In this document: positions 6,601 to 31,026 of the stretch, piece by piece
Layout: each line of letters starts with the position of its first letter
Position numbering within the stretch: position 1 is the first letter of the stretch
NCBI GenBank assembly: GCA_046719305.1
Contig: JBDNDE010000001.1
Span: 8,607 to 40,606, forward strand
DNA: 32,000 nt
Source of the DNA: Gemmataceae bacterium
GTDB lineage: Bacteria > Planctomycetota > Planctomycetia > Gemmatales > Gemmataceae
Direction: 5' to 3'
The notes under the pieces: model-generated
The model's database searches: none
The model's input: the letters and a program-made list of their open reading frames with translations, nothing else
What the model was told of the DNA's origin: nothing
Program-made: the position numbers and the translations under genes

Positions 6601-9509
6601 GTTGTCGGAAGGTTGTCCCTCTTCCAGACCAACTCACCCGTTGCTGCGTCATACAGCCGCAGGTTGTGCTCCGGCTCACCGTCCTCGTCCCAGTTCCCCG
6701 TGGCAATCCATCGGCCATCGGGCGACCAGGCGGCCACCCGTGCCGGACGCAACGTGCGAACCAGTTTGCCGGTTGCCAGTTCCCAGACGTAGGCCGGCCC
6801 AGCGCCTGCCGTCAGGAGATAGCGGGAGTCAGGCGAAAACGATAGATGGCGTGGCAGATGACTGGCCACCTGCAACCAGCGGGCCTCGAAGCGCGGTTTG
6901 ATGCTCCAAAAGGTTGAATGGAGGAAGCCTTGCAGCGGCGACACCGCCACATGTTGGCTATCGGCCGTAAAGCTGTAGCTGAGCTGTTGCAAGGCCAGCG
7001 GTAAGCGAAAGGCAGTCTTGCCAGTGGTGGACTCCACGAAGGTCAGTCCGTCGCGGTTGCGCAACACCCAGTATTGCCCGTCGGGCGTGATTTGGACAAA
7101 GCGACTTCCGGGATGGTTTTCGGATAGGTCGGGTCCAGCCGGTTTGCCGGTGCGCGGCGCGACGATTTCCTGCTTTTCGGGTCGGAGCAGGAAAAGTTCA
7201 TCCCGCTCAGGATGCAATGCGAAGGAATCCGAGCGGCTCTCTCGCTCTAGGGGCCAGGTACGCGGCTGGCCCGTGCCTGTCTCCCAGATGCGGAGTTGCC
7301 CACCCTTAGTGTGGTCCACCGGGCCACCCAACCAGACCAACAACTGACTTTCCCGATCGAAATCAAGTGCATAGCTTCGCGGTGCTTTTGTTTCAAAAAC
7401 ATGCAGCTTCTTGCCCTCACTTGACCAGATCCTCACTCCCGAAGGGCCAGCTGCCGCATAGCTTTTGCCATCGCGTGCATAGGCGACCAGTTGCACGGGA
7501 TTGCTAGCGTCCTCAGGTGCAGGCAACGGCTTGCCCGAAGGAAATTCCCACCGCAACAGCCCTTTAGGACCACCAGCCAACAGAATCTTCCCATCGGGGC
7601 TGAACCGTGGCCGAAGATCGACTGCTACTTCCCCTTGCAGAAGGATCGGCTTTTCTACCTGGCTGAGGTCTACGAGGGCGAACTGATCCGGGCCTACGAA
7701 GCCGGCCATGTGCCTCCCATCGGGATGAAACACAACCTGGCCCCCCACACCGTCCACCTGCGTATGGCCATAGTGCATGACGCGGCGGAGGAAATGCCAT
7801 TCCCACTGGCGTAAATCAGGCGGCACCTGATCGAGCAGATCACAGGCCGATTTGTGGTTGGTCCGCTTCCAGGCTTCAAACGCTCGCGTAATCAGGTTGG
7901 CAGCTAAGGCACGCCGAGTGTCGCGTTCGGAGCGTTCCGCCTGTTGACGGGCCTGCGTGGCTTTGGCCTGGGCCGCTTTCGCTTTCGCCTCCTCGGCTTT
8001 GGCGCGTGCCTCTTCTTGCTCGGCTTTGGCCTGGGCCTTTTTGGCTGCCTGGGCGGAACGCTCCGCGACGCTCTTCTGGATTCTCGCCTCGTTGGCTTCG
8101 CGCTGGGCTCGTTCGCGTTGTTCGGCTTCCTTCTTCTGCGCGTCGGTTGCTTTGTCGCGCTCTTTACTGGCAATCTGCCGTTGTTCTTCGGCTGTTTGGC
8201 GTTCTTTGTCCGCCCGATCGCGCTGCAGAGTGGCCCAAAGAGACTGCATGCGCGCGTTATCGGCTTCGCTTTCGGCTCGCAGCCACAATCCCGTCACCAG
8301 GATGGAACCTACCAGTGTCAGCGTCACCGCCAGGCTACTCAACGCGGCCACTACTGGGTTGCGTTTGGCCCATTTGGCCGCACGGCCGACTGCGCTCAGT
8401 GGCCGAGCCACGATAGGTTCACCAGCCTGATAACGCCGCAGATCGTCGGCCAGTTCCTCGGCCGAGCCATAGCGGCGCGTGGGGTCTTTCTCCAGGCATT
8501 TGAGTGTAATGGTATTGAGGTCAACCGGGATGGTAGGAACAAGTTGTTTGGGCAGCACCGGATCGACATTCAACACTTGATGCAACGTCTCGCGGGTGCT
8601 GGCTCCCTGGAACGGTGCGCGGCCAGTCAAGCACTTGTACAGAATCGCCCCCAGGGCATAAACATCGGCCAACGGCCCAATGTCGTGGATACGACCGGCG
8701 GCCTGCTCGGGAGCCATGTACGATGGGGTGCCCATGATCTGGCCGGTGACTGTTTGGCCGTGATCGTCGTCGAGTTGTTTAGCCAGGCCGAAGTCCGTGA
8801 TTTTAACCAGGTGATACCATTCATTCGGACCGGCAACCGATTTGCTGGGTAGACTTTGTCCGGGGAGGCGAACATCGCGGCTACTCTGGCGACGAGCCGT
8901 CGCTTTGCGGTCGGCGCGATCTAGCCCTTGCAACAACACATTGGCCGGTTTGAGATCGCGATGGATGATCTGCCGCGTGTGCGCGTAATGCATCGCACGC
9001 GCCAACACCTCTACCAGGGCGGCCGCCTCAGCCGGAGTCTGTGGTTCGCTTCCCAGATACTGCGACAGATTGATGCCCTCGATCAATTCCAGCGAGAAAT
9101 AGGGCATCCCCTCGTGGTCGCCAATCTCATAAAGCGTCACGATGTTGGGATGCTGCAATCGCGCCGCTGACTGTGCCTCAGAACGAAACCGGGCCAGTTC
9201 TATCTCGCCGGCCAAGTTAGCCGAGCGGATCATCTTGAGCGCAACGGTACGGTTCAAGGCCGGTTGCCGGGCTTTGTACACGACGCCCATGCCACCACGG
9301 CCTAATTCGCCTAGCACCTCATACGGACCAATCTTCTGTCCAATGGGGCCAGGGAGCTTGCCGCCGGTAGAGTTGGGCAAGGCCAACGAATCCTCGGCAG
9401 CTTGACCTTCATAGGCATCGGTGTGACCGGCTTCGGCAGTCGTGGTTTGCTGGCGAACGTCTGGTTCAGAAGTGACAGCAGGGGGAACGGTCGGACGTTC
9501 GGGAGTCAT
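3618..9509 (-). CDS. giant membrane-spanning Ser/Thr protein kinase: N-terminal Hanks kinase domain, one TM helix, Lys/Ala/Glu-rich coiled coil, WD40-type beta-propeller repeats, C-terminal TPR region (1963 aa)
   Basis: The ORF is complete, with GGAGGA 5 nt upstream of the ATG. Kinase motifs are GELGRGGMGVVYKA, VALK, HRDLKPANVLL, DFGLAK and SYMAPE (about aa 62-366, nt ~8412-9326). The TM helix is VVAALSSLAVTLTLVGSILVTGLWL (nt ~8283-8354). The coiled coil is KAQAKAEQEEARAKAEEAKAKAAQAKATQARQQ (nt ~7875-8267). There are at least 10 repeats of the F/W-SPDG-x-hydrophobic type, e.g. FSPDGKILLAG, WSPDGRWIATG, FSPDSKQLLVG and FSPDGHYLVVSS (nt ~5400-7830). TPR-like helical repeats run to the C-terminus (nt ~3690-5370). 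Confidence 0.95.
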   Translation of the reverse strand: MTPERPTVPPAVTSEPDVRQQTTTAEAGHTDAYEGQAAEDSLALPNSTGGKLPGPIGQKIGPYEVLGELGRGGMGVVYKARQPALNRTVALKMIRSANLAGEIELARFRSEAQSAARLQHPNIVTLYEIGDHEGMPYFSLELIEGINLSQYLGSEPQTPAEAAALVEVLARAMHYAHTRQIIHRDLKPANVLLQGLDRADRKATARRQSSRDVRLPGQSLPSKSVAGPNEWYHLVKITDFGLAKQLDDDHGQTVTGQIMGTPSYMAPEQAAGRIHDIGPLADVYALGAILYKCLTGRAPFQGASTRETLHQVLNVDPVLPKQLVPTIPVDLNTITLKCLEKDPTRRYGSAEELADDLRRYQAGEPIVARPLSAVGRAAKWAKRNPVVAALSSLAVTLTLVGSILVTGLWLRAESEADNARMQSLWATLQRDRADKERQTAEEQRQIASKERDKATDAQKKEAEQRERAQREANEARIQKSVAERSAQAAKKAQAKAEQEEARAKAEEAKAKAAQAKATQARQQAERSERDTRRALAANLITRAFEAWKRTNHKSACDLLDQVPPDLRQWEWHFLRRVMHYGHTQVDGVGGQVVFHPDGRHMAGFVGPDQFALVDLSQVEKPILLQGEVAVDLRPRFSPDGKILLAGGPKGLLRWEFPSGKPLPAPEDASNPVQLVAYARDGKSYAAAGPSGVRIWSSEGKKLHVFETKAPRSYALDFDRESQLLVWLGGPVDHTKGGQLRIWETGTGQPRTWPLERESRSDSFALHPERDELFLLRPEKQEIVAPRTGKPAGPDLSENHPGSRFVQITPDGQYWVLRNRDGLTFVESTTGKTAFRLPLALQQLSYSFTADSQHVAVSPLQGFLHSTFWSIKPRFEARWLQVASHLPRHLSFSPDSRYLLTAGAGPAYVWELATGKLVRTLRPARVAAWSPDGRWIATGNWDEDGEPEHNLRLYDAATGELVWKRDNLPTTAVAFSPDSKQLLVGSRIDLARKRGKVSLLEVEAGKLLWSVDTQLIREISLSPQGDAIWTLESSSPQVRRYDPKSGKILPQLRLHDGLTQGWAVAPREGLWLSFGADNLQQMSEQIAVRDRNNRFLFLLSGLRGTIYSADWHPSLSRIVSSDESGSIQLWDLFTKQELLALQTGFDPYPKQKRDLRPVVARFSPDGHYLVVSSSQGVQVYDDRPVPELAQMSSVNGHRNSWGVRDPDQKWSLSRHPGPRIECRSATGNLLWETTTPLLATMTCAYHLDRKRLAVSAGYELGEIEVPSGKSIRQYDARPHLAGPIYAVAYSSDGKRLGCLSGGRLTVLKTQPSVTIWDVETGNLLSHQPIDKPFEETERPWFSQDLLQIVCTNVDSVTREVKGFRLWDTATGKPLPPVMTARVQSELNWQRRGVRLTSLSEGFRGNILQDQLQQLVRLPDKEEQQARATRLMLSDSWNGSEAKIAYTNQQWFKAQFHLERAGVTGSDNPDVIYSLAAVVHNLSKRMVEEYRHEVARPSLERCLAIYERLVKRYPNDPDYVRDYANTLMTYADLLDELGFHTEGIKHAKQALDLFKKAHALQSTPSKDGDVVMAYNTLASIYKGNIDDDLAKKIFSQGVEYGEQALKRHQGDFAIQYPLAALYHNRASICAGSQEDDLATSGFQKSIDLLKPMVQLQPDPYIIHDLSNSYMELAARHVLKDEPVQATKAIAESLALIRRALKANPDQAFLKRHYSELLGTVAGLYARMGKLADADVAYEEALEIVRELVRQDPKLAMSRFDLAATLHNQAKFLLLYLDRPLTAELQYRKAEKLLDELVDSAPRIRMYRRDLANTHVHLAETLMRQGKRLAALSAFQKALKSWEAYAKDYPRWRENHFQILTCKAMVALLRNRRDEVLRLASEMTKRDNPRERSGYEAAVVLMHLAGRTEDKAEREKILAQAVTYIELSVKDRDESPSILRRDPQLKLLHDRDDFKKLLDKVTPKEK

Positions 9510-9585
9510 GGCGAGTCCTCCGGGGCAATGGGGCCTGATTATCCTCTGCCGCTACGGAGGGGTCAAGCAGGCTGCTGAAAAGTCC

Positions 9586-10224
9586 TCAACTCACCTTTTC
9601 TTCGTCGGTGTCGTCGACTTTCTTTTTGGCTTTGAGATCTTTTGGGTTTGCAACAGGCGGGACGCTACGCGACTCGCTGCGTAATTTCTTGCGGGCTCGC
9701 GACAGGATCGGTCCGATCGAGTTTACCGGAATGTTTAACTCCATACTGATTTCTTCATACGATCGCCCTTCGATGTAGTGCAGTCGCACCACTTCCCGTT
9801 CGCGGCCCGGCAGCTTCGACAGTAGCCGTTCCACCTCTTCGAGCCGTTCTAGCCCCGTGGAAATCGGTTCGTCTTCGACCGGCTCGGGCGTCTCGGCCTG
9901 TGCTTGCACTTCCTTGGCGGCGGCTCGGCGGGCCAGTTCGTGGATGCAGATGCGCCGGGCAATCACCGTGAGATAGACTGATAGGCTGGCCTCACCGCGG
10001 AACTGCCGCAGTACCGCGTAATCGTTGGCTATGACCTGCGTGAGAATCTCAGCGGCCAGGTCTTCGATGTCTTCGGGCCGCAGAACCACGGAGCGAAGAT
10101 GGGCAGTGTGCTGGATGACGTGGTAGATTAGGCCCAGGAAGCGATCGACGAAGTCGTTCCAGGCCCCAGGTTTCTTGGCCAGGCAGCGAGTCAGCAAATC
10201 ACGATCCAGCGGAGTCAGGGCCAC
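9586..10224 (-). CDS. ECF-type sigma-70 family RNA polymerase sigma factor
   Basis: The ORF is 212 aa with a GTG start and GAGG about 8 nt upstream. Region 2 reads FVDRFLGLIYHVI...EDIEDLAAEILTQVIANDYAVLRQFRGEASLSVYLTVIARRICIHELAR. Region 4 contains an HTH: LPGREREVVRLHYIEGRSYEEISMELNIPVNSIGPILSRARKKLR. A ~30-aa charged C-terminal tail follows. The gene ends 76 nt upstream of the kinase gene on the same strand. Confidence 0.9.
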   Translation of the reverse strand: MALTPLDRDLLTRCLAKKPGAWNDFVDRFLGLIYHVIQHTAHLRSVVLRPEDIEDLAAEILTQVIANDYAVLRQFRGEASLSVYLTVIARRICIHELARRAAAKEVQAQAETPEPVEDEPISTGLERLEEVERLLSKLPGREREVVRLHYIEGRSYEEISMELNIPVNSIGPILSRARKKLRSESRSVPPVANPKDLKAKKKVDDTDEEKVS

Positions 10225-10477
10225 GACGCTACCTCGATGGGAGAGTGGGACAATAAATCAACTCGGCATCATTTTACGTCCTAGTGGCAAGTCCCGCCAG
10301 CGGGGCTAGTCAGATTTTCCGCCAACCCTGTCCTACCGCGTCACCGCTACGATTTAATTTACACAATTTAATTTCTTGAACATCTCGAACATCAGGCTAC
10401 CTCAGATGACCACTGTTCGGCAGATCTTGGGGGTACTCACCGCTGAGGCAGATACAGGCAAGTCGTAGATCTGGCGG

Positions 10478-10780
10478 TCATCCCTGCGGTTCGTGGATGC
10501 TGTAGCCCGGCAACAAAATCGCCTTGAGCGTCTCCGCAGCGGTCTTGCTCTTGCGGTCGTATTCTTTTTCGCTCTCGGTTAGCTCGGTGTATGGCACCAG
10601 ACACGGATGCTTCTTGGCCACATCGTCACGCTGTAGGTCATAGGTCCAGCCGACGTTGATCCGTTGAACTGCCCACACCTCATGAGGATTCTCTGCCAGC
10701 CTCTCCAGTAAAGCCGACTGCGAAACCGGCAAGCTCAGCTCGATAGTTAAACACCTCCACAGGGGCACGAAAGGCATCAT
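10478..10780 (-). CDS. RyR (ryanodine-receptor repeat, PF02026-like) domain protein; possibly the last intact frame of a longer disrupted gene
   Basis: The translation ELSLPVSQSALLERLAENPHEVWAVQRINVGWTYDLQRDDVAKKHPCLVPYTELTESEKEYDRKSKTAAETLKAILLPGYSI matches the RyR-domain signature as I recall it (AEN.HE.WA..R...GW.YG..RD...K.HP.LVPY.EL.E.EKEYDR). There is no convincing SD in front of the ATG at 10780. Confidence 0.65.
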   Translation of the reverse strand: MMPFVPLWRCLTIELSLPVSQSALLERLAENPHEVWAVQRINVGWTYDLQRDDVAKKHPCLVPYTELTESEKEYDRKSKTAAETLKAILLPGYSIHEPQG

Positions 10781-20700: not shown

Positions 20701-21831
20701 ATGCAGGTGATAAATTGGCTCCGGCTTAGCCTGGCAGTGGCTATGGTTTGTCTGGCCGTGCTGACCGCCCCCCCGTCAATCCAGGCCCAGGCTGCCAAGA
20801 AGGGCAAGTCGATCACTGTCCGTACCTTCGATGGTGTAGACCTCTCTGGCACCCACTACCCCAATACCAGCGGCAAACGAGACGCTGTCGCGATCTTGAT
20901 GCACCATTTTGACAAGTCCAAAGGCGGCAGCAGTTCTGCCGAAGGCTGGAGCCAACTTGTCAACGACCTGCTAGCCGATGGCTACACGGTGATTAATTTC
21001 GACTTCCGGGGTTTCGGCGACAGTAAGAACGTCGACAAGGAAAAATTTTGGAAGTATTCGCATAACACAGCAAACATCACCGGGAAACGCGGTGAAACCA
21101 TCGACTACAAAAACTTCCGCCCCAACTACTATCCTTACCTTGTTAATGACCTTGCCGCCATCAAGGCCTATCTGGACCGCCGCAATGATGCGCGGGAACT
21201 AAACAGCGGCAACATTCTCCTCATCGGGGCGGGTGATGCTGCCGCGGTCGGCAATCTGTGGTTGGCTCATGAATCCAAACGCCGCCGCGATAAATCGGGG
21301 GGGGCCATCGGAGCCATGATGGCACTAGGAGAACCCGAGGTAAAGGATGTTGCCGCGGCCATCTGGCTCTCACCGACGAGCAAGATCGGAGCCAAGACCG
21401 TTCCCCTACAGACCCTTCAGAAGTGGGCCGCTGAGGCGGGCAAGGTCAATAAAGTGCCAATGGCTATCGTCTACGGAAGCAAAGATGCCACCAGTTTAGA
21501 CGTTGCCAGCAAACTCTACAACGCGATCAAGGGGGGGGCCAAACCGAAGGAGTTTCCTCACACGGTCCTAGAAAAGATTCCTGATACCAATCAAAAATAT
21601 GCCGATCTGCTCACGCGGGACAATGGAGGGTCCGCCTGGATCGTGAAAAAATACCTCCCCAAAGTGATGGAAGATCGTGGCGCAGTGGAACGCATTGAAC
21701 GTGATATCATCAAGTCGCCCTACTATTATCAACTGACCAAAAACGGCATCCCACAGATTCAGAAAGCACCGGGGTTGGATGTCGCTGAGGTCAACCTCAA
21801 ACTATTCTGGCCGGGTCTCCTCGGTCCCTGA
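20701..21831 (+). CDS. secreted alpha/beta-hydrolase-fold protein with non-canonical nucleophile elbow
   Basis: GAGGT lies 7 nt upstream of the ATG. The signal peptide is LSLAVAMVCLAVLTAPPSIQA/QA. The alpha/beta-hydrolase hallmark YTVINFDFRGFGDS is present. The nucleophile-elbow position reads ILLIGAGDAAAVG instead of G-x-S-x-G. Confidence 0.7.
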   Translation: MQVINWLRLSLAVAMVCLAVLTAPPSIQAQAAKKGKSITVRTFDGVDLSGTHYPNTSGKRDAVAILMHHFDKSKGGSSSAEGWSQLVNDLLADGYTVINFDFRGFGDSKNVDKEKFWKYSHNTANITGKRGETIDYKNFRPNYYPYLVNDLAAIKAYLDRRNDARELNSGNILLIGAGDAAAVGNLWLAHESKRRRDKSGGAIGAMMALGEPEVKDVAAAIWLSPTSKIGAKTVPLQTLQKWAAEAGKVNKVPMAIVYGSKDATSLDVASKLYNAIKGGAKPKEFPHTVLEKIPDTNQKYADLLTRDNGGSAWIVKKYLPKVMEDRGAVERIERDIIKSPYYYQLTKNGIPQIQKAPGLDVAEVNLKLFWPGLLGP

Positions 21832-22767
21832 TTCTTCAGGCGCGGTCGCTCGTCGACTCCCACGTGGGTGAAACTGGCGATGAATGGCCCGCAAGCGTTC
21901 GCGGTCGACATGGGTGTAGCGTTGGGTCGTCCGAATACTCGCGTGCCCGAGCATTTCCTGTACTGTCCGCAGGTCCGCTCCTCCAGAGAGCAGATGCGTC
22001 GCGAAACTATGCCGCAACGCATGGGGGCTAATCTTGCTGGGAAGATTGGCTCGTTTGGCATACTTCTTCACCAGCGACCAGATCACTACCCGTGACAACG
22101 ACTTGCCCGCTCGGCTGACAAACAGCCACGGCGACTCGGGCGCTGTCTTGGTCAGGCTCGGTCGCTGTTTCTCCAAGTAGGCCTGCAAGCTGGCTACGGC
22201 CATCTTGCCCAGCGGTACCACCCGTTGCTTGTTCCCCTTGCCGATGCAGCGGCAAAAGCCGGCGTTGAGTTGCAAGTCATCCAGGCGCAGCCCCGCTACC
22301 TCGGATACCCGACAGCCGGTCGCATACAAGGTTTCCAACACGGCGCGATCTCGCAGATAGAAGCGATCCGCATTTGTGGGCGCTTCCAGCAGTCTGTTCA
22401 CCCCTGCTGGATCGAGCACCTGCGGCACTCGCTCCCAAAGCATCGGCGAGGCTAACAATTCGACAGCTGTTTGAGTGGTACGTTCTTCGAGTTTGAGGAA
22501 GCGGTAAAATACCTTGAGTGCGACTAAATGTCGGGCGACGCTGGGTGGGGCCAGATGCATCTCCTCGCGCAAAAAGGCCACATACTGGGCCAACTCCCGC
22601 AGGGACGGCAATAGGTAGTTCGCTACGTTGCCCTGTTCCACCCAGCCGGCATAGCGTTCCAAATCCCGGCTATAAGCGGCTTGGGTGTTGACGGCCAGAC
22701 CGCGTTCGCAACGCAGGTACTGCCGGAACGCTCTGACATCGTCGCGCAGTTCACTGATACCACTCAT
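21802..22767 (-). CDS. xerD: site-specific tyrosine recombinase, XerD-like
   Basis: The N-terminal SAM-like domain reads FRQYLRCERGLAVNTQAAYSRDLERYAGWV and ARHLVALKVFYRFL. The catalytic domain has ATGCRVSEVAGLRLDDL, HALRHSFATHLL, LGHASIRTTQRYTHV and RLRAIHRQFHPRG. A ~17-aa acidic tail overlaps the convergent hydrolase gene by 30 nt. Confidence 0.8.
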   Translation of the reverse strand: MSGISELRDDVRAFRQYLRCERGLAVNTQAAYSRDLERYAGWVEQGNVANYLLPSLRELAQYVAFLREEMHLAPPSVARHLVALKVFYRFLKLEERTTQTAVELLASPMLWERVPQVLDPAGVNRLLEAPTNADRFYLRDRAVLETLYATGCRVSEVAGLRLDDLQLNAGFCRCIGKGNKQRVVPLGKMAVASLQAYLEKQRPSLTKTAPESPWLFVSRAGKSLSRVVIWSLVKKYAKRANLPSKISPHALRHSFATHLLSGGADLRTVQEMLGHASIRTTQRYTHVDRERLRAIHRQFHPRGSRRATAPEESGTEETRPE

Positions 22768-26976: not shown

Positions 26977-27011
26977 AAAAACCAACCAGCCCGCGGAGGT
27001 TTCCTCCGCGG
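26977..27011 (-). terminator. rho-independent-type terminator downstream of the thioredoxin-like gene
   Basis: A perfect 9-bp inverted repeat, ccgcggagg (26991-26999) and cctccgcgg (27003-27011), has a 3-nt loop. It lies 34 nt after the TGA stop at 27045-27047. On the minus strand it is followed by GCUGGUUGGUUUUU (U-run = plus-strand A-run 26977-26981). Confidence 0.55.
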
Positions 27012-27044
27012 ACCGTGACTGTTTCGCTAAGCGAAGGGAAACGA

Positions 27045-27596
27045 TCACTCGAGAATCTTCGGCAGGGCGGCTAGGATCGCCTCGATGTCCTTTTCCTTCA
27101 GTTCGCCCTTTTTATAGGCAAACTGAGCGCGAGTCTTGCGGTTCTTGTAGAGAACCACGGTCACATCGGCATCAGGATGCAGTTCATAGCCCCCCGGACC
27201 CGACTTGCTATCCACCAGCGTCAGAATGGTCTTGGTAATCTTTTCCTTCTTGGCCAGGTTCTTGAGCTCATCTTCAAGCTTTTCGGAGTCGTTGCAGAAG
27301 ACCACGAAAGAACCCATCTTCTTCTTGGCATTCTCTTCGGTCTTCTTGTCGATGGCCTTGACCAAACTGGTCAAGTTGTCGGAGACTTCGCGAGCGAAGA
27401 TCATCACGACAGGGTTGCCACCGTTGCTTCAGACAAGGCAATTTTTGGAGCCGACGTTCTTGCCACTGCAGTGTAGTGGGTTGAACGCCTTAATCGGCAT
27501 AGTGGGCTTCTGTTCGCCCGATTTGAGTTCATCCGCTGCTAGCACGACGGTCACTATCGCGCAGGCCAGGGATGCTCCCAGCACCATCTTGTTCAT
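27045..27596 (-). CDS. secreted thioredoxin-like protein with one in-frame TGA (27431..27429) in a C-x-x-TGA motif; candidate selenoprotein (183 aa if TGA = Sec), otherwise a freshly inactivated gene
   Basis: The ATG at 27596 is preceded by AGGAGG at 6-nt spacing. Translation gives MNKMVLGASLACAIVTVVLAADELKSGEQKPTMPIKAFNPLHCSGKNVGSKNCLV-TGA-SNGGNPVVMIFAREVSDNLTSLVKAIDKK...KILE*. The track's 120-aa ORF (27045..27407) is the tail of this same frame. I checked the frame codon by codon from 27596 to 27402. Confidence 0.55.
27378..27410 (-). promoter_or_regulatory. stem-loop 18 nt downstream of the in-frame TGA (possible SECIS-like element)
   Basis: The minus-strand RNA is GUCG-UGAU-GAUCUUCG-CUCG-CGAAGUC-UC-CGAC. 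It has a 4-bp outer stem, a small internal loop, and an inner stem of 7 bp with one bulged U. The tetraloop starts about 34 nt after the UGA. That spacing is compatible with bacterial SECIS models as I recall them, but the structure is short and not diagnostic. Confidence 0.3.
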
Positions 27597-27885
27597 GAGA
27601 TCCTCCTATTGTGGAAGAAAGCCGGACCGTTCCGACTTCACCGTGTTGGACGAGAGCTACCGCTTTGCGATTCGAGCAAGCCGGCCAAGATGTGAAGGAT
27701 TTTCGGAAAAACGATTACGGCAACCAATTTCGCTAATCAAATCGAGGGAAGTGATAAGATTCTTCTATCGCGACTTTGCTTTACGATCCTCTATCAACAC
27801 CGGGCTTCGACTTGCCCCGACTGGCTTGGTTTGCTATCGCTGGCCCTCGCGCGATCGCCTCGTGCCGGTTGGGAGTTACCCTGTG

Positions 27886-30800
27886 ATGACCAGTCTCGGC
27901 TTGCTAGCGTTGCTGTTCTTCCTGAACGGCTCCACGACGGGTGAGCTACCAGCCTATCTACCGCGTTATGATCTCGTGATCGACCTAGATGTCAAGAATC
28001 GGCAGGCCCAGGTACAGCAGGTTGCAACGTGGACCAACCCGCACGAAACGCCCACAGATCGGGTTGTGCTGGTCGCTCACGCCAGGTATGTCGTGCCCGA
28101 GAAAGAGATCGGGTTTACTGCTAAGACGCTGGAGATCTTGCGAGTGCGACCTAGTGAGGCGATGGGAATCGTCGCGCCACCGTTGAAACTGCACGCGTTG
28201 AGAGTCGAAGGCCAATCGGCCCGATACACCGTTGAGGGGGACACCCAGACCACCTTGGTTGTCCCCCTAGGTCGTCCCCTTGGCAAGGGCCAGAGCATTC
28301 GGTTAACGCTGGATTTCACACTCGATTTGCCCGCCAAAATGGGCCGCTGGGGTCAATGGGACGGGATCACCACCTTAAGCAACTGGTTACCCATCTTTGC
28401 TTATTATGGCCCCGAGGTGAACCGCTTTGAGGTCCGCCCAGATGGAGCCAAATGGCAACCAACGAATTTCATCGCCTGGCATCAACCATTCTTTAATGAA
28501 GCGGGCATCTATTCGGTGCGGCTCACGGTCGATGGTGACCAGAAAGTCGTGGCCACGGGCAAGATTTTCGACCGCAAAACGAGCCCTGAAGGACGCCAAG
28601 TGTTGCACATTCACGCCTGTGGGGTGCGAGAATTCTCCCTCTTTTGTAGCAGCAAGTATTGCTTCCATGAGGCGGACGTGCCCGCTGGACCCGATGGGAG
28701 CATGGTCCGCGTCCGGACCGCGGTTTCGCCACGCAATGTCTTTTATGGCAAAAAATGTGTCGAATTCGCCTCGCATGCCTTGCTTTGCTACAGCCGCTGG
28801 CTGGGACCATACCCCTATCCCGAATTGACCGTAGCCGAATCCTACTTTGGCTGGAACGGTAACGAGTGTTCGACGATCGTGATGCTAGATGAGCGGGTGC
28901 TGGGCATGCCACAGGTAGCCCAAGAATATGTGGATTATTTGCTCACCCATGAGGTGGCTCACCAATACTGGTACAACCTCGTCGGCACCAATGGCTTTAG
29001 CGAAACCTGGATGGACGAGGCGATGGCCAATCACCTGTGCCAGCGGGTGATGACCGAGAAGTATGGCAAGAACAACGCCCTGATGACCTACCCCAAATGG
29101 CTGGATTGGCTGCCGAAGATTCACCGCGACGACTTTCGCTCTAGTGGCATGTACGGTACCTTTGGCCGGGGGGAGAATACGGCGATACTACAGGAACTCA
29201 ACGGCTTTGGGCATCTCATCACTCTGTTTAACATGTGTTATGACAAGGGCAGTCGGGTGATGGCGATGATCGAGAACCGAATGGGAGGCGAACGATTTTT
29301 TTATGATTTTCTGCGTCTGATCGTGAGCAAGTATCGCTACCGCATCCTCCGCGTGGCTGATTTCCGCCGGGAATTGGAAGCCTACACCGGCAGCACGCCC
29401 AAGAGGTGCGGCCAGTGCTGGGCAGACTTTTTCGAGAACTGGCTGTGCAAAGAGGGGTTGAGCGACTGGAGCGTCGAAAATGTCACGCTCACCAAGCCGC
29501 CTAAATGTGTTAATGAATCGTATGAGCGATGTTTTCTCAAACGTCGTTTGCTGTTGTGCCGGGGTGCCTGTCCCGAAAACGACTTACCGACTGACGGGGT
29601 TCGAGTGGAGGTGATTGTTCACCAACGCCAAGAGTATGACGAGCCAACGCAACTGGGCTTGGAACTGCCCAACTGCCAGGGCTACCCGATTCGCATTCCG
29701 ATTCTCCCGCACCTATCGATCTACACGATCTGTGAGCCGCCCGCTCGCGTCACTCGTCTGGAAAATGGCCCCAAAGGCGGTGTACGGATGAAAATCGAGG
29801 TCGTCCTGCCTGCGGAGCCAACACAAATTGCCATCGACCCCGACCAGAACCTGATCGACGCCAACCCCGCGAACAATTATTGGCACACGCCGATTCGTTG
29901 GCGTTTGACGCCCTTATACACTTTTTTAGAAGAAACAGATCTGACCAACGCCTATGATCGCTGGAACATCATTGCCGGGCCTTGGCTGTTTACGCCGCCT
30001 TATCAAGACCCCTGGTTCACTCGTTCGACGATGGCCGGCGCACGCCTGGGGGCCTACCGCACTCAGCAGTTCGTTGGTGGGGCCTACATCGGCTTCCGCA
30101 CCGATTTCCGCGATGTTGTCGCCGGCGTCGATGGCATGTGGGACCACTGGCCCCAGCCTACTATGCAATCCGGCGTTATTGCCGAACGCCGACTTGCAGA
30201 GGTGCAACGGGGTGATCCGAACGCCTTTCGGGCTGTCGCATGGACACGCTACATCTTTCTTTATTCACCCAGTTTGTATCTACCCCCGGCTCATTTCGTT
30301 GAAGGGTTTGTCAAATATTCCGATAACTTTCTCCCGTTTCCAGCCGAGAGGGTGCCGACCGGGGTTCGTTACGATCGCACGACCACAGCGGGGTTGCATT
30401 ACCGCATCAACTACCTAACCCCCTATTGGGATCCCGAGGGCGGTTTTCAGTTCGATGCCTGGTACGAAGGCGGGATTGCGGCTCAGCCTTCTACCGTGAT
30501 GGTGCAGAAGCTCTCCGGTCAGTTCAGCAGCGTTCATTTCCCCCCGGATCTGCGACCCTGGTTTGCCGAGGGAAGCCTAGCACAAAAGATCAGCGGCTGG
30601 CTGGCCGACACTCGCTTCGCTTTGCGCCTTTTTGGTGCCACCTCGATGCCCTCGCGTGGTGAATTTTTCACCTTGGGCGGGGCGGATCTGTTTCGCGGCT
30701 TTGACATGCGCGAGCGTCAGGGCAGCATGGTTTATGTCGGCTCGGTGGAGTGGCGTGTGCCTCTGGTTCAAGCTGTCAAATGGGACTGCTGCGACCACAT

Positions 30801-31026
30801 GATCGGCCTGCGTAGTGCCTATCTGGCCGCGTTTTATGATGTCGGCAATGCCTTCACCAGTGGCCGCTCGGTGGGGTCGATGGTACACGCGGTCGGTTTG
30901 GGGCTACGAGCCGATGTGGCGTGGTTCAGTTTTGTCGAGCGGACGACGCTGCGGCTAGATATTGCCCAGACCCTCAATAGCAGCAGGGGGGTGCAAGCCT
31001 GGATTGGGGTCAATCACCCGTTTTGA
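27886..31026 (+). CDS. fusion protein: N-terminal M1-family (gluzincin) metallopeptidase plus C-terminal Omp85/BamA-type outer-membrane beta-barrel (1046 aa)
   Basis: The 1273-aa track ORF is over-extended, because its first 680 nt run antisense through the thioredoxin-like gene. The in-frame ATG at 27886 (GGGAG 10 nt upstream) gives MTSLGLLALLFFLNGSTTG... The M1 active site reads HEVAHQYWYNLVGTNGFSETWMDEAMANH, with exact HExxH-x18-E spacing. The barrel has the Omp85 loop-6-like motif GGADLFRGFD, plus AAFYDVGNAF, GLGLRADV and LRLDIAQ. The protein ends in ..GVNHPF, i.e. a terminal Phe. Confidence 0.85.
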   Translation: MTSLGLLALLFFLNGSTTGELPAYLPRYDLVIDLDVKNRQAQVQQVATWTNPHETPTDRVVLVAHARYVVPEKEIGFTAKTLEILRVRPSEAMGIVAPPLKLHALRVEGQSARYTVEGDTQTTLVVPLGRPLGKGQSIRLTLDFTLDLPAKMGRWGQWDGITTLSNWLPIFAYYGPEVNRFEVRPDGAKWQPTNFIAWHQPFFNEAGIYSVRLTVDGDQKVVATGKIFDRKTSPEGRQVLHIHACGVREFSLFCSSKYCFHEADVPAGPDGSMVRVRTAVSPRNVFYGKKCVEFASHALLCYSRWLGPYPYPELTVAESYFGWNGNECSTIVMLDERVLGMPQVAQEYVDYLLTHEVAHQYWYNLVGTNGFSETWMDEAMANHLCQRVMTEKYGKNNALMTYPKWLDWLPKIHRDDFRSSGMYGTFGRGENTAILQELNGFGHLITLFNMCYDKGSRVMAMIENRMGGERFFYDFLRLIVSKYRYRILRVADFRRELEAYTGSTPKRCGQCWADFFENWLCKEGLSDWSVENVTLTKPPKCVNESYERCFLKRRLLLCRGACPENDLPTDGVRVEVIVHQRQEYDEPTQLGLELPNCQGYPIRIPILPHLSIYTICEPPARVTRLENGPKGGVRMKIEVVLPAEPTQIAIDPDQNLIDANPANNYWHTPIRWRLTPLYTFLEETDLTNAYDRWNIIAGPWLFTPPYQDPWFTRSTMAGARLGAYRTQQFVGGAYIGFRTDFRDVVAGVDGMWDHWPQPTMQSGVIAERRLAEVQRGDPNAFRAVAWTRYIFLYSPSLYLPPAHFVEGFVKYSDNFLPFPAERVPTGVRYDRTTTAGLHYRINYLTPYWDPEGGFQFDAWYEGGIAAQPSTVMVQKLSGQFSSVHFPPDLRPWFAEGSLAQKISGWLADTRFALRLFGATSMPSRGEFFTLGGADLFRGFDMRERQGSMVYVGSVEWRVPLVQAVKWDCCDHMIGLRSAYLAAFYDVGNAFTSGRSVGSMVHAVGLGLRADVAWFSFVERTTLRLDIAQTLNSSRGVQAWIGVNHPF

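Follow-up and report, generated by a model that had tools for sequence, protein, structure and literature searches.

The locus at 27045..27596 on the minus strand raises the question whether an in-frame TGA ends a very short peptide or is read as selenocysteine (Sec) within a longer protein. The locus lies in a 32,000-nucleotide (nt) stretch of DNA from a Gemmataceae bacterium (GenBank assembly GCA_046719305.1, contig JBDNDE010000001.1, positions 8,607 to 40,606 of the forward strand), which is called the window here and whose first letter is position 1. An earlier note, made from the letters of this DNA alone, had proposed it as a candidate selenoprotein gene. Comparison with homologous genes suggests that 27596..27045 is very probably a genuine Sec-encoding gene, single and intact. 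By the same sequence evidence it is not a 55-amino-acid (aa) peptide followed by a separate open reading frame (ORF) of 120 aa. Confidence in the exact mechanism of recoding and in the biochemical function of the product is much lower.

The elements of the gene needed for the argument are the following.

27602..27607, minus strand: Shine-Dalgarno-like AGGAGG, 5 nt upstream of the ATG at 27596..27594, read from the sequence
27045..27596, minus strand: complete candidate selenoprotein coding sequence, 183 codons plus stop with the putative Sec at codon 56, from translation and from Cys homologues (183-190 aa) that align end to end
27534..27596, minus strand: predicted signal peptide MNKMVLGASLACAIVTVVLAA, about 21 residues, with the cleavage site placed from the sequence
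27429..27440, minus strand: C-L-V-U motif, TGC (Cys53) CTT GTC TGA (putative Sec56, TGA at 27431..27429), from the codon alignment at the DNA level
27045..27407, minus strand: truncated 120-aa ORF with GTG start at 27407, the gene callers' version, which begins inside the conserved strand PVVMIFAR

The frame opened by the ATG at 27596 translates as MNKMVLGASLACAIVTVVLAADELKSGEQKPTMPIKAFNPLHCSGKNVGSKNCLV. It contains a single in-frame TGA at 27431..27429, in the context C-L-V-TGA, after which 127 more sense codons follow up to the stop TGA at 27047..27045. The 55 aa before the in-frame TGA consist of a signal-like hydrophobic segment and then ...NPLHCSGKNVGSKNCLV. On inspection the N-terminus has the basic n-region, hydrophobic core and small-residue c-region of a signal peptide, and in the alignment every full-length homologue begins with a hydrophobic segment of the same kind. 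The codon of Cys53 (27440..27438) stands three residues ahead of the TGA, and Cys43 stands 10 residues ahead of Cys53. The same architecture was found by alignment in 47 other TGA-containing genes. In the mechanical ORF list the gene is split into a 55-aa ORF and the 120-aa GTG ORF, the latter preceded by a weak GGTGG. Most of this had been described in the earlier note, namely the AGGAGG and ATG opening a frame with a signal peptide, the TGA followed by 127 codons, the two cysteines at their spacing and the downstream ORF starting in mid-strand behind GGTGG, and its coordinates and residues were reproduced by translation of the minus strand. Its remark that TGA is a normal stop in the neighbouring genes also agrees with the ORF list, in which TGA terminates seven of the 15 large ORFs of the window, the candidate selenoprotein gene included; recoding would therefore be site-specific, with no change of the genetic code.

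A homologue search with the conceptual 183-aa protein, in which U was written as C, retrieved 2,329 relatives, and none of the 120 listed homologues carries a precomputed Pfam domain. The relatives fall into two length classes. Those of about 120 aa are 70-99% identical to the query but align with its C-terminal 64% only, whereas the full-length ones (about 185 aa) are about 50% identical to it. The short class is exemplified by P0001, a 120-aa "hypothetical protein" of NCBI from a Gemmataceae metagenome-assembled genome (MAG), which is 99% identical to the window protein and is truncated exactly like the GTG ORF; together with P0033, P0042, P0101 and P0102 it belongs to a set of NCBI entries of 110-122 aa, all named "hypothetical protein", that start at or just before the conserved M-I-F-A-R. 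The full-length homologues read C-L-[YFV]-C, with the second Cys in the alignment column of the window TGA, and Cys53 is kept in at least 90% of them. The earlier note had predicted homologues with a CxxC, the second Cys of which would coincide with the TGA, and this was borne out; in addition, 47 other genes keep the TGA itself.

The aligned codon was read in the DNA of 80 loci fetched from GTDB species representatives, nearly all labelled Gemmataceae, Gemmatales or Planctomycetota, which together with the window gave 85 family genes in all. TGA stands at this codon in 48 of them, TGC or TGT in the remaining 37, and TAA or TAG in none. The TGA forms come from the window and 44 different assemblies, and such conservation of TGA at one codon is far beyond chance. 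In a neighbour-joining tree they make up a deep clade whose members share about 50-60% amino-acid identity, so that the TGA must have been kept over a long divergence. The CL[YF]C forms are its sister paralogue clade, and three Cys forms are nested inside the TGA clade. Ahead of the TGA, at codons -11 to -2, the amino acids of the TGA forms are kept while synonymous codons vary (Gly GGC/GGT/GGG, Ala GCC/GCT/GCG, Lys AAG/AAA, Leu CTG/CTT/TTG), which indicates that the region before the TGA is translated in the same frame. This pattern and the N-terminal motif KSGPQVG...F.PL..G..AG.K.C, common to TGA and Cys forms, argue against a pseudogene and against two separate genes. The window and its orthologues thus have a UGA flanked on both sides by conservation in one frame, and this UGA is aligned with Cys in 37 homologous genes, two properties by which selenoprotein genes are recognized.

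Three database proteins (P0009, P0017 and P0018) read C-L-V-W. The DNA was checked for P0009 (L083:160-711) and has TGA at this position; evidently the "W" in such entries stems from a gene caller's table with TGA = Trp, applied to short metagenome contigs, so that the proteins are full-length but mistranslated at this residue. For five contigs with clearly Gemmataceae-type family genes (L011, L020, L026, L034 and L004) the public records name MAGs of Candidatus Kuenenia stuttgartiensis, Alcaligenaceae, Acidobacteriota or Nitrospirota, probably because of faulty binning or labelling. Screening the fetched loci for other in-frame-TGA genes with a nearby Cys gave 784 candidates and was uninformative, because GC-rich DNA has long spurious ORFs in every frame.

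Two hairpins follow the TGA within the coding sequence.

27377..27411, minus strand: hairpin 1, starting 18 nt after the UGA (alignment columns 21-55, the U of UGA being column 1)
27357..27375, minus strand: hairpin 2, CUUGACC-AGUUU-GGUCAAG (columns 57-75), starting one nucleotide after hairpin 1

The Cys forms encode almost the same downstream peptide (NG.NPVAMIFARE...) and can therefore serve as a natural control for RNA structure. Hairpin 1 consists of a lower stem GUCG(U/C)/(G/C)CGAC and an upper stem CUUCG/CGAAG that is formed by the I-F-A-R-E codons, and its loop, CNCG, lies about 34 nt from the UGA. In the window it has a minimum free energy (MFE) of -12.9 kcal/mol (z = -2.5). In 47 TGA forms its two helices are paired to 85% and 94%, six pairs are changed on both sides, and pair 21-55 occurs as five standard pair types; these pairing and covariation values were reached by none of 500 shuffles. 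In the Cys forms, by contrast, the same structure is 65% paired, which equals the shuffle mean, and RNAalifold returns a consensus hairpin when given the TGA forms but not when given the Cys forms. The Arg codon within hairpin 1 is CGC in 45 of 45 TGA forms and variable in the Cys forms. The stem-loop that the earlier note had placed at 27378-27410 and considered compatible with a bacterial signal is thus real (27411..27377), and it is conserved and covarying in the TGA forms only.

Hairpin 2 surfaced through an analysis of synonymous sites in TGA versus Cys forms. Its family form is CUUGACC-AGUYU-GGUCAAG, with a stem of 7-8 bp and the loop (A)GUY(U), about 60 nt from the UGA. The MFE is -9.2 kcal/mol for 19 nt (z = -4.0), a stability found in none of 200 shuffles, and pairing in 47 TGA forms amounts to 98.8%, with one compensatory change of C-G to U-A. 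Codons +19 to +24 of the TGA forms (L-T-S-L-V-K) are almost fixed: TTG in 43/45, ACC in 41/41, AGT in 41/41, TTG or CTG, GTC in 44/44 and AAG in 43/45. The Cys forms have L-T-K-L-I-K at this place with free codon choice, and neither TTG nor AGT is preferred there (CTG is used for Leu, and Lys replaces Ser). None of the 37 Cys forms has hairpin 2, and in the three that are nested in the TGA clade it has been lost. When the loci were scanned for stem-loops like hairpin 2, only family genes, among them the tandem TGA copy in L019, and about 20 chance-like matches were found. The overall MFE of the 66 nt after the codon did not separate TGA from Cys forms (-18.6 vs -18.8 kcal/mol); the two groups are told apart only by the specific hairpins.

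Two further pairings were considered and discarded. A third helix suggested by single-sequence folding (columns 15-17 with 58-60) is incompatible with hairpin 2, and the outer stem that encloses the two hairpins in the 92-nt fold of the window is not conserved in most TGA forms. In the window (27336-27431, minus strand) and a few close relatives, e.g. L002, CGGUGGC (+9 to +15) can pair with GCCAUCG (+76 to +82) to give a three-way junction; the 92-nt fold with this junction has an MFE of -34.7 kcal/mol (z = -3.8), and the stem is impossible in most other TGA forms.

A bacterial selenocysteine insertion sequence (bSECIS) is described as having a loop of 3-9 nt, an upper stem of 4-16 bp, an MFE <= -7.5 kcal/mol and a distance of 16-37 nt between UGA and loop; the loop has G in its first two positions and is typically N1-G-[G/U]-N-N2 with N1 and N2 paired (PMC13188914). 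The stem, the MFE and the spacing (34 nt) of hairpin 1 lie within these limits, as do the loop (GUU closed by A-U), the stem (8 bp) and the MFE of hairpin 2; each hairpin departs from the description in one respect, hairpin 1 in its loop and hairpin 2 in its spacing. We infer that the UGA at 27431..27429 would be recoded to Sec by SelB carrying Sec-tRNA(Sec), under the direction of a two-part signal in the mRNA formed by hairpins 1 and 2 inside the coding sequence. Hairpin 2, whose loop fits the bacterial pattern, is the best candidate for the apex bound by SelB. With hairpin 1 folded the path would be shorter, and the UGA would be separated from the loop of hairpin 2 by about 26 unpaired or stem-entry nt instead of 60. 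The reverse assignment, with hairpin 1 as the SelB-binding apex, is possible.

The fold of the protein was modelled on P0012, the closest full-length Cys homologue, which shares 54% identity over the full length and the HC...CLVC pattern; the alignment used for the model had 73 sequences. The AlphaFold2 model has a mean predicted local distance difference test score (pLDDT) of 88.7 and a predicted template modelling score (pTM) of 0.82; residues 1-23, the signal-peptide region, are disordered with pLDDT below 50. A short helix at about 55-60, starting at the CxxC, is followed by beta-alpha-beta-alpha-beta-beta-beta-alpha. The domain maps to the window as follows.

27048..27419, minus strand: predicted thioredoxin-fold domain, from NPVVMIFAR to the C-terminus, according to the AlphaFold2 model of P0012 and Foldseek

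In a Foldseek search of the PDB the model matched BCP/peroxiredoxins, oxidoreductases of the TlpA/ResA/DsbE type, FetE and Sco with probability 1.0, and the target-normalised template modelling (TM) scores to 3gl3, 8t4c, 4nmu, 3hjp and ResA structures were 0.68-0.82. Accordingly, the earlier description of the protein as thioredoxin-like was right at the level of the fold. At the sequence level, neither the Pfam and NCBIfam models (PF00578, PF08534, PF13098, PF13905, PF10262 and the NCBIfam selenoprotein models included, with expectation values (E) up to 10) nor the PDB sequences gave a match to the query.

In proteins with the thioredoxin fold the first long helix comes directly after the central strand and carries the catalytic CxxC, or the peroxidatic Cys, at its N-terminus. 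In this family the canonical position is occupied by an invariant F-A-R, followed by E-V-S (Arg69, Thr146 and Tyr150 are among the invariant residues), and in the model the CxxC/CxxU appears to lie about nine residues before the strand that leads to it. The protein, as modelled, is thus thioredoxin-like in fold but without the canonical active site. It would be exported through the Sec protein-export pathway by its predicted signal peptide, giving a mature protein of about 160 residues. In the modelled fold Cys53-x-x-Sec56 would stand at the start of the short helix, just before the central strand leading to the canonical site. The location of a Cys-x-x-Sec at the N-terminus of a helix suggests a selenenylsulfide redox couple, and the most likely chemistry is that Cys53 and Sec56 would cycle between selenolate/thiol and selenenylsulfide. 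The protein may thus act as a periplasmic redox protein of the thiol-disulfide or peroxide type.

If Sec is assumed, the pair could instead, together with His42-Cys43, bind a soft metal or metalloid (e.g. Cu(I), Hg or As) in a periplasmic chaperone or scavenger. Such a role would fit a motif that is off the canonical thioredoxin active site, the presence of Sco copper chaperones among the structural matches and the metal binding of several catalogued CxxU/UxxC selenoproteins. The extra H-C of the window's subgroup would fit it as well, but many members of the family have N-V or N-I in its place. Since, moreover, no metal-handling genes are consistently adjacent and most CxxU selenoproteins are thought to be redox proteins, metal binding, the main rival as regards function, seems unlikely, and a redox role is preferred.

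Several observations weigh against a Sec-encoding gene. ARAGORN found no tRNA-Sec in the window or the 80 loci, and neither the window nor 1.19 Mb of fetched flanking sequence revealed a selA, selB or selD; the sole match of E. coli SelA, SelB and SelD in tblastn searches of the 1.19 Mb was an EF-Tu gene beside a tRNA cluster in L007. Neither hairpin combines all four published properties of a bSECIS: the loop of hairpin 1 (CNCG) has no leading G, and hairpin 2, at about 60 nt, is outside the range of 16-37 nt. Rfam detected nothing in the window at gathering thresholds, and around the site only chance-level matches when E values as high as 10 were admitted. Some family members do without the motif: P0014 (SSLVV) and P0021 (TSQVV) have neither Cys, and P0085 has Glu at the site (CLVE, at the protein level) yet keeps the TGA-form peptide LTSLVK. 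Finally, there is no consistent partner gene, and synteny across the loci is little conserved. As to the sel genes, their absence from the flanks is expected, as linkage to selenoprotein genes is not required of them. Complete gene sets for Sec insertion have been reported in Gemmata obscuriglobus and Isosphaera pallida (PMC4807772), and selA, selB, selC and selD are listed for Gemmata obscuriglobus, a species of the type genus of Gemmataceae (PMC4807772 Table S8). The Sec trait therefore exists in the Gemmataceae.

Part of these observations would also be compatible with a UGA that is read through without Sec, a near-cognate or suppressor tRNA inserting Trp, Cys, Arg or Gly and the hairpins acting as stimulators of read-through. 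RNA structure 3' of a stop codon can indeed promote read-through in other systems, and both the missing Sec machinery (in the window and the 1.19 Mb) and the deviation of each hairpin from the bSECIS description agree with this explanation. It does not account, however, for the classic Sec/Cys pair at the site, where 37 homologues have the second Cys of their CxxC. At the DNA level Cys is the only standard amino acid at the site in the 85 genes, the database "W" being a translation-table artefact. Furthermore, the loop of hairpin 2 follows the G-U loop rule of SelB-type signals, and Sec decoding is documented in the type genus of Gemmataceae (PMC4807772). Read-through without Sec is thus improbable.

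Still less probable is that the gene is as annotated or is a pseudogene, i.e. that translation stops at the TGA and that either the locus is decaying or the 120-aa GTG ORF yields a functional product in the cytoplasm. The NCBI and JGI gene calls do all give an ORF of 119-122 aa, and the GTG with the weak GGTGG in front of it exists, but a start there would cut into a conserved beta-strand of the fold. Purifying selection acts in the same frame on the 55 codons upstream, and the full-length Cys homologues are contiguous. A pseudogene would be expected to contain frameshifts and other stops, and none was seen; the 48 genes, which span a deep clade, all retain TGA and never a different stop. That the window TGA is a sequencing or assembly error for TGC or TGT, from which it differs by one base change, is practically excluded by the same TGA in 47 other genes from 44 independent assemblies obtained by different methods, and also by the two hairpins, which are missing in Cys forms and intact in the window.

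A 1273-aa ORF of the mechanical list (27205-31026, plus strand) runs antisense through the candidate selenoprotein gene. Its family match (Peptidase_M1) is only downstream, from about 27805, so that the overlapping N-terminal part is most likely a spurious extension in GC-rich DNA. Antisense ORFs of this kind lie over the family gene in 57 loci.

A review of 2026 catalogued 119 families of prokaryotic selenoproteins, almost every one of them linked to a Pfam, TIGR or NCBIfam model (PMC13188914 Table 1). The query matches none of these Pfam, NCBIfam and TIGR models at E up to 10, and the families defined only in CDD (cd02966, cd02970, cd10141 and cd01144) are set apart by their catalogued motifs (UxxC, UGC, UxxS etc.) and the positions of these. 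Planctomycetes are not mentioned in this review (PMC13188914), in the BSepDB paper or in the deep-Sep paper.

Among known selenoproteins the TlpA/Prx-like ones (Prx-like thiol:disulfide oxidoreductase, thiol-disulfide isomerase-like, redoxin family and UGC-containing TlpA; PMC13188914 Table 1) resemble the candidate in fold class, as judged by Foldseek matches to ResA, DsbE, BCP and AhpC, and in having a Sec/Cys pair in a dithiol-type motif with two-residue spacing. They also share a UGA within the coding region followed by a stem-loop, and many of them are exported. They differ in having their UxxC, UxxU or UGC at the canonical site, where helix alpha1 begins after the central strand, whereas the candidate has F-A-R-E-V-S there and its CxxU about 9 residues before the strand. 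With the SelW-like/Rdx proteins (PF10262) the candidate has in common a CxxU with Sec in second place, a small thioredoxin-like protein and a presumed selenenylsulfide redox cycle. In SelW-like/Rdx proteins, which are cytosolic, the CxxU is between beta1 and alpha1 of a minimal fold; the candidate is about twice as large, has a predicted signal peptide and a TlpA/Prx-like topology, and does not match PF10262.

The putative recoding signal is similar to the canonical bSECIS of the E. coli fdhF type in being a stem-loop inside the coding sequence, downstream of the UGA (PMC13188914 section 5). Hairpin 2 also resembles the bSECISearch consensus in its small apical G-U loop closed by an A-U pair, its 8-bp stem and its MFE below -7.5 kcal/mol. 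In contrast to the canonical element, the hairpin with the consensus loop is at about 60 nt, a second conserved hairpin stands between it and the UGA, and the hairpin at the canonical distance is the one without the leading G in the loop. From these sequence comparisons we rate the family as a new selenoprotein family that would use a known mechanism; the two-hairpin SECIS and the off-site CxxU are features that could go beyond it. The more far-reaching proposal, that this is a new selenoprotein family confined to Gemmatales with a redox or binding site at a new place on the thioredoxin scaffold and a new SECIS architecture (a SelB hairpin at about 60 nt and a covarying spacer hairpin), is tentative, and the chances are somewhat against it. 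If it held for the SelB hairpin at about 60 nt and the spacer hairpin, SECIS-based searches would systematically miss such genes, and the spacing rule for SelB (16-37 nt), on which current predictors rely, would need revision.

The public annotations seen either cut these genes to about 120 aa or mistranslate the UGA as Trp, so that the whole family, with more than 2,300 database relatives and TGA forms among roughly half of the best matches, appears to be misannotated. Correction would add a selenoprotein family and Sec use in at least 44 assemblies of Gemmatales, a group hardly mentioned in the selenoproteome literature. The TGA/Cys pairs show clearly how the choice of codons, and even of amino acids, is limited by an RNA signal (the Cys forms have LTKLIK where the TGA forms have LTSLVK), and they may serve as a natural test set for SECIS models, possibly including a non-canonical two-hairpin arrangement. 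A conserved CxxU off the canonical thioredoxin site in a predicted exported protein points to uncharacterised chemistry. In our view the locus exposes a solid annotation gap that can be corrected and offers a clean natural experiment on the constraints set by a SECIS, but it is not a conceptual surprise for the field.

The surroundings of the gene are typical planctomycete DNA: the window also encodes a Ser/Thr kinase with WD40 and TPR repeats, an extracytoplasmic function (ECF) sigma factor, a HEAT-repeat protein, an M50 protease, PhoD, a tyrosine recombinase, SppA and an M1 peptidase fusion. The gene of the XerC/D-type tyrosine recombinase (21802-22767, minus strand) overlaps by about 30 nt the 3' end of a convergent ORF (20701-21831, plus strand) for an alpha/beta-hydrolase-like protein, and no sign of a mobile element was noticed at this overlap. 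Two features lie downstream of the candidate selenoprotein gene.

26977..27015, minus strand: strong intrinsic-terminator-like hairpin (27015..26987) followed by a T-run, with a 13-bp stem containing 10 G-C pairs, 30 nt after the stop codon
26390..26815, minus strand: 141-aa protein MTLDEIKKQFVEQVKLRAYDDKYIDKGEEREILQLAL..., without Pfam match, directly downstream of the terminator

The 141-aa gene follows the family gene in 13 related loci and is its only recurrent neighbour.

Sec and Cys forms of the family often occur together. A TGA copy and a Cys copy are arranged in tandem in L019, a complete 8.8-Mb Gemmataceae chromosome (9285-9838 and 10001-10561), in L030 (about 10150 and 10940) and in L041 (about 9480 and 10140), and L034 has two tandem TGA copies around 10160 and 10815. 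In the tree the tandem Cys copies fall within the TGA clade, and hairpin 2 has been lost from them. A TGA form and a paralogue of the Cys clade are present on different contigs in at least six other assemblies. The presence of a Sec and a Cys form of one protein in the same genome is reminiscent of formylmethanofuran dehydrogenase subunit B, for which Sec/Cys isoforms under selenium regulation are cited in Methanopyrus kandleri (PMC4807772). In the archaeal isoforms this regulation is documented, whereas for the Gemmataceae pairs it is presumed by analogy; the Cys paralogue may be a selenium-independent back-up of the Sec form.

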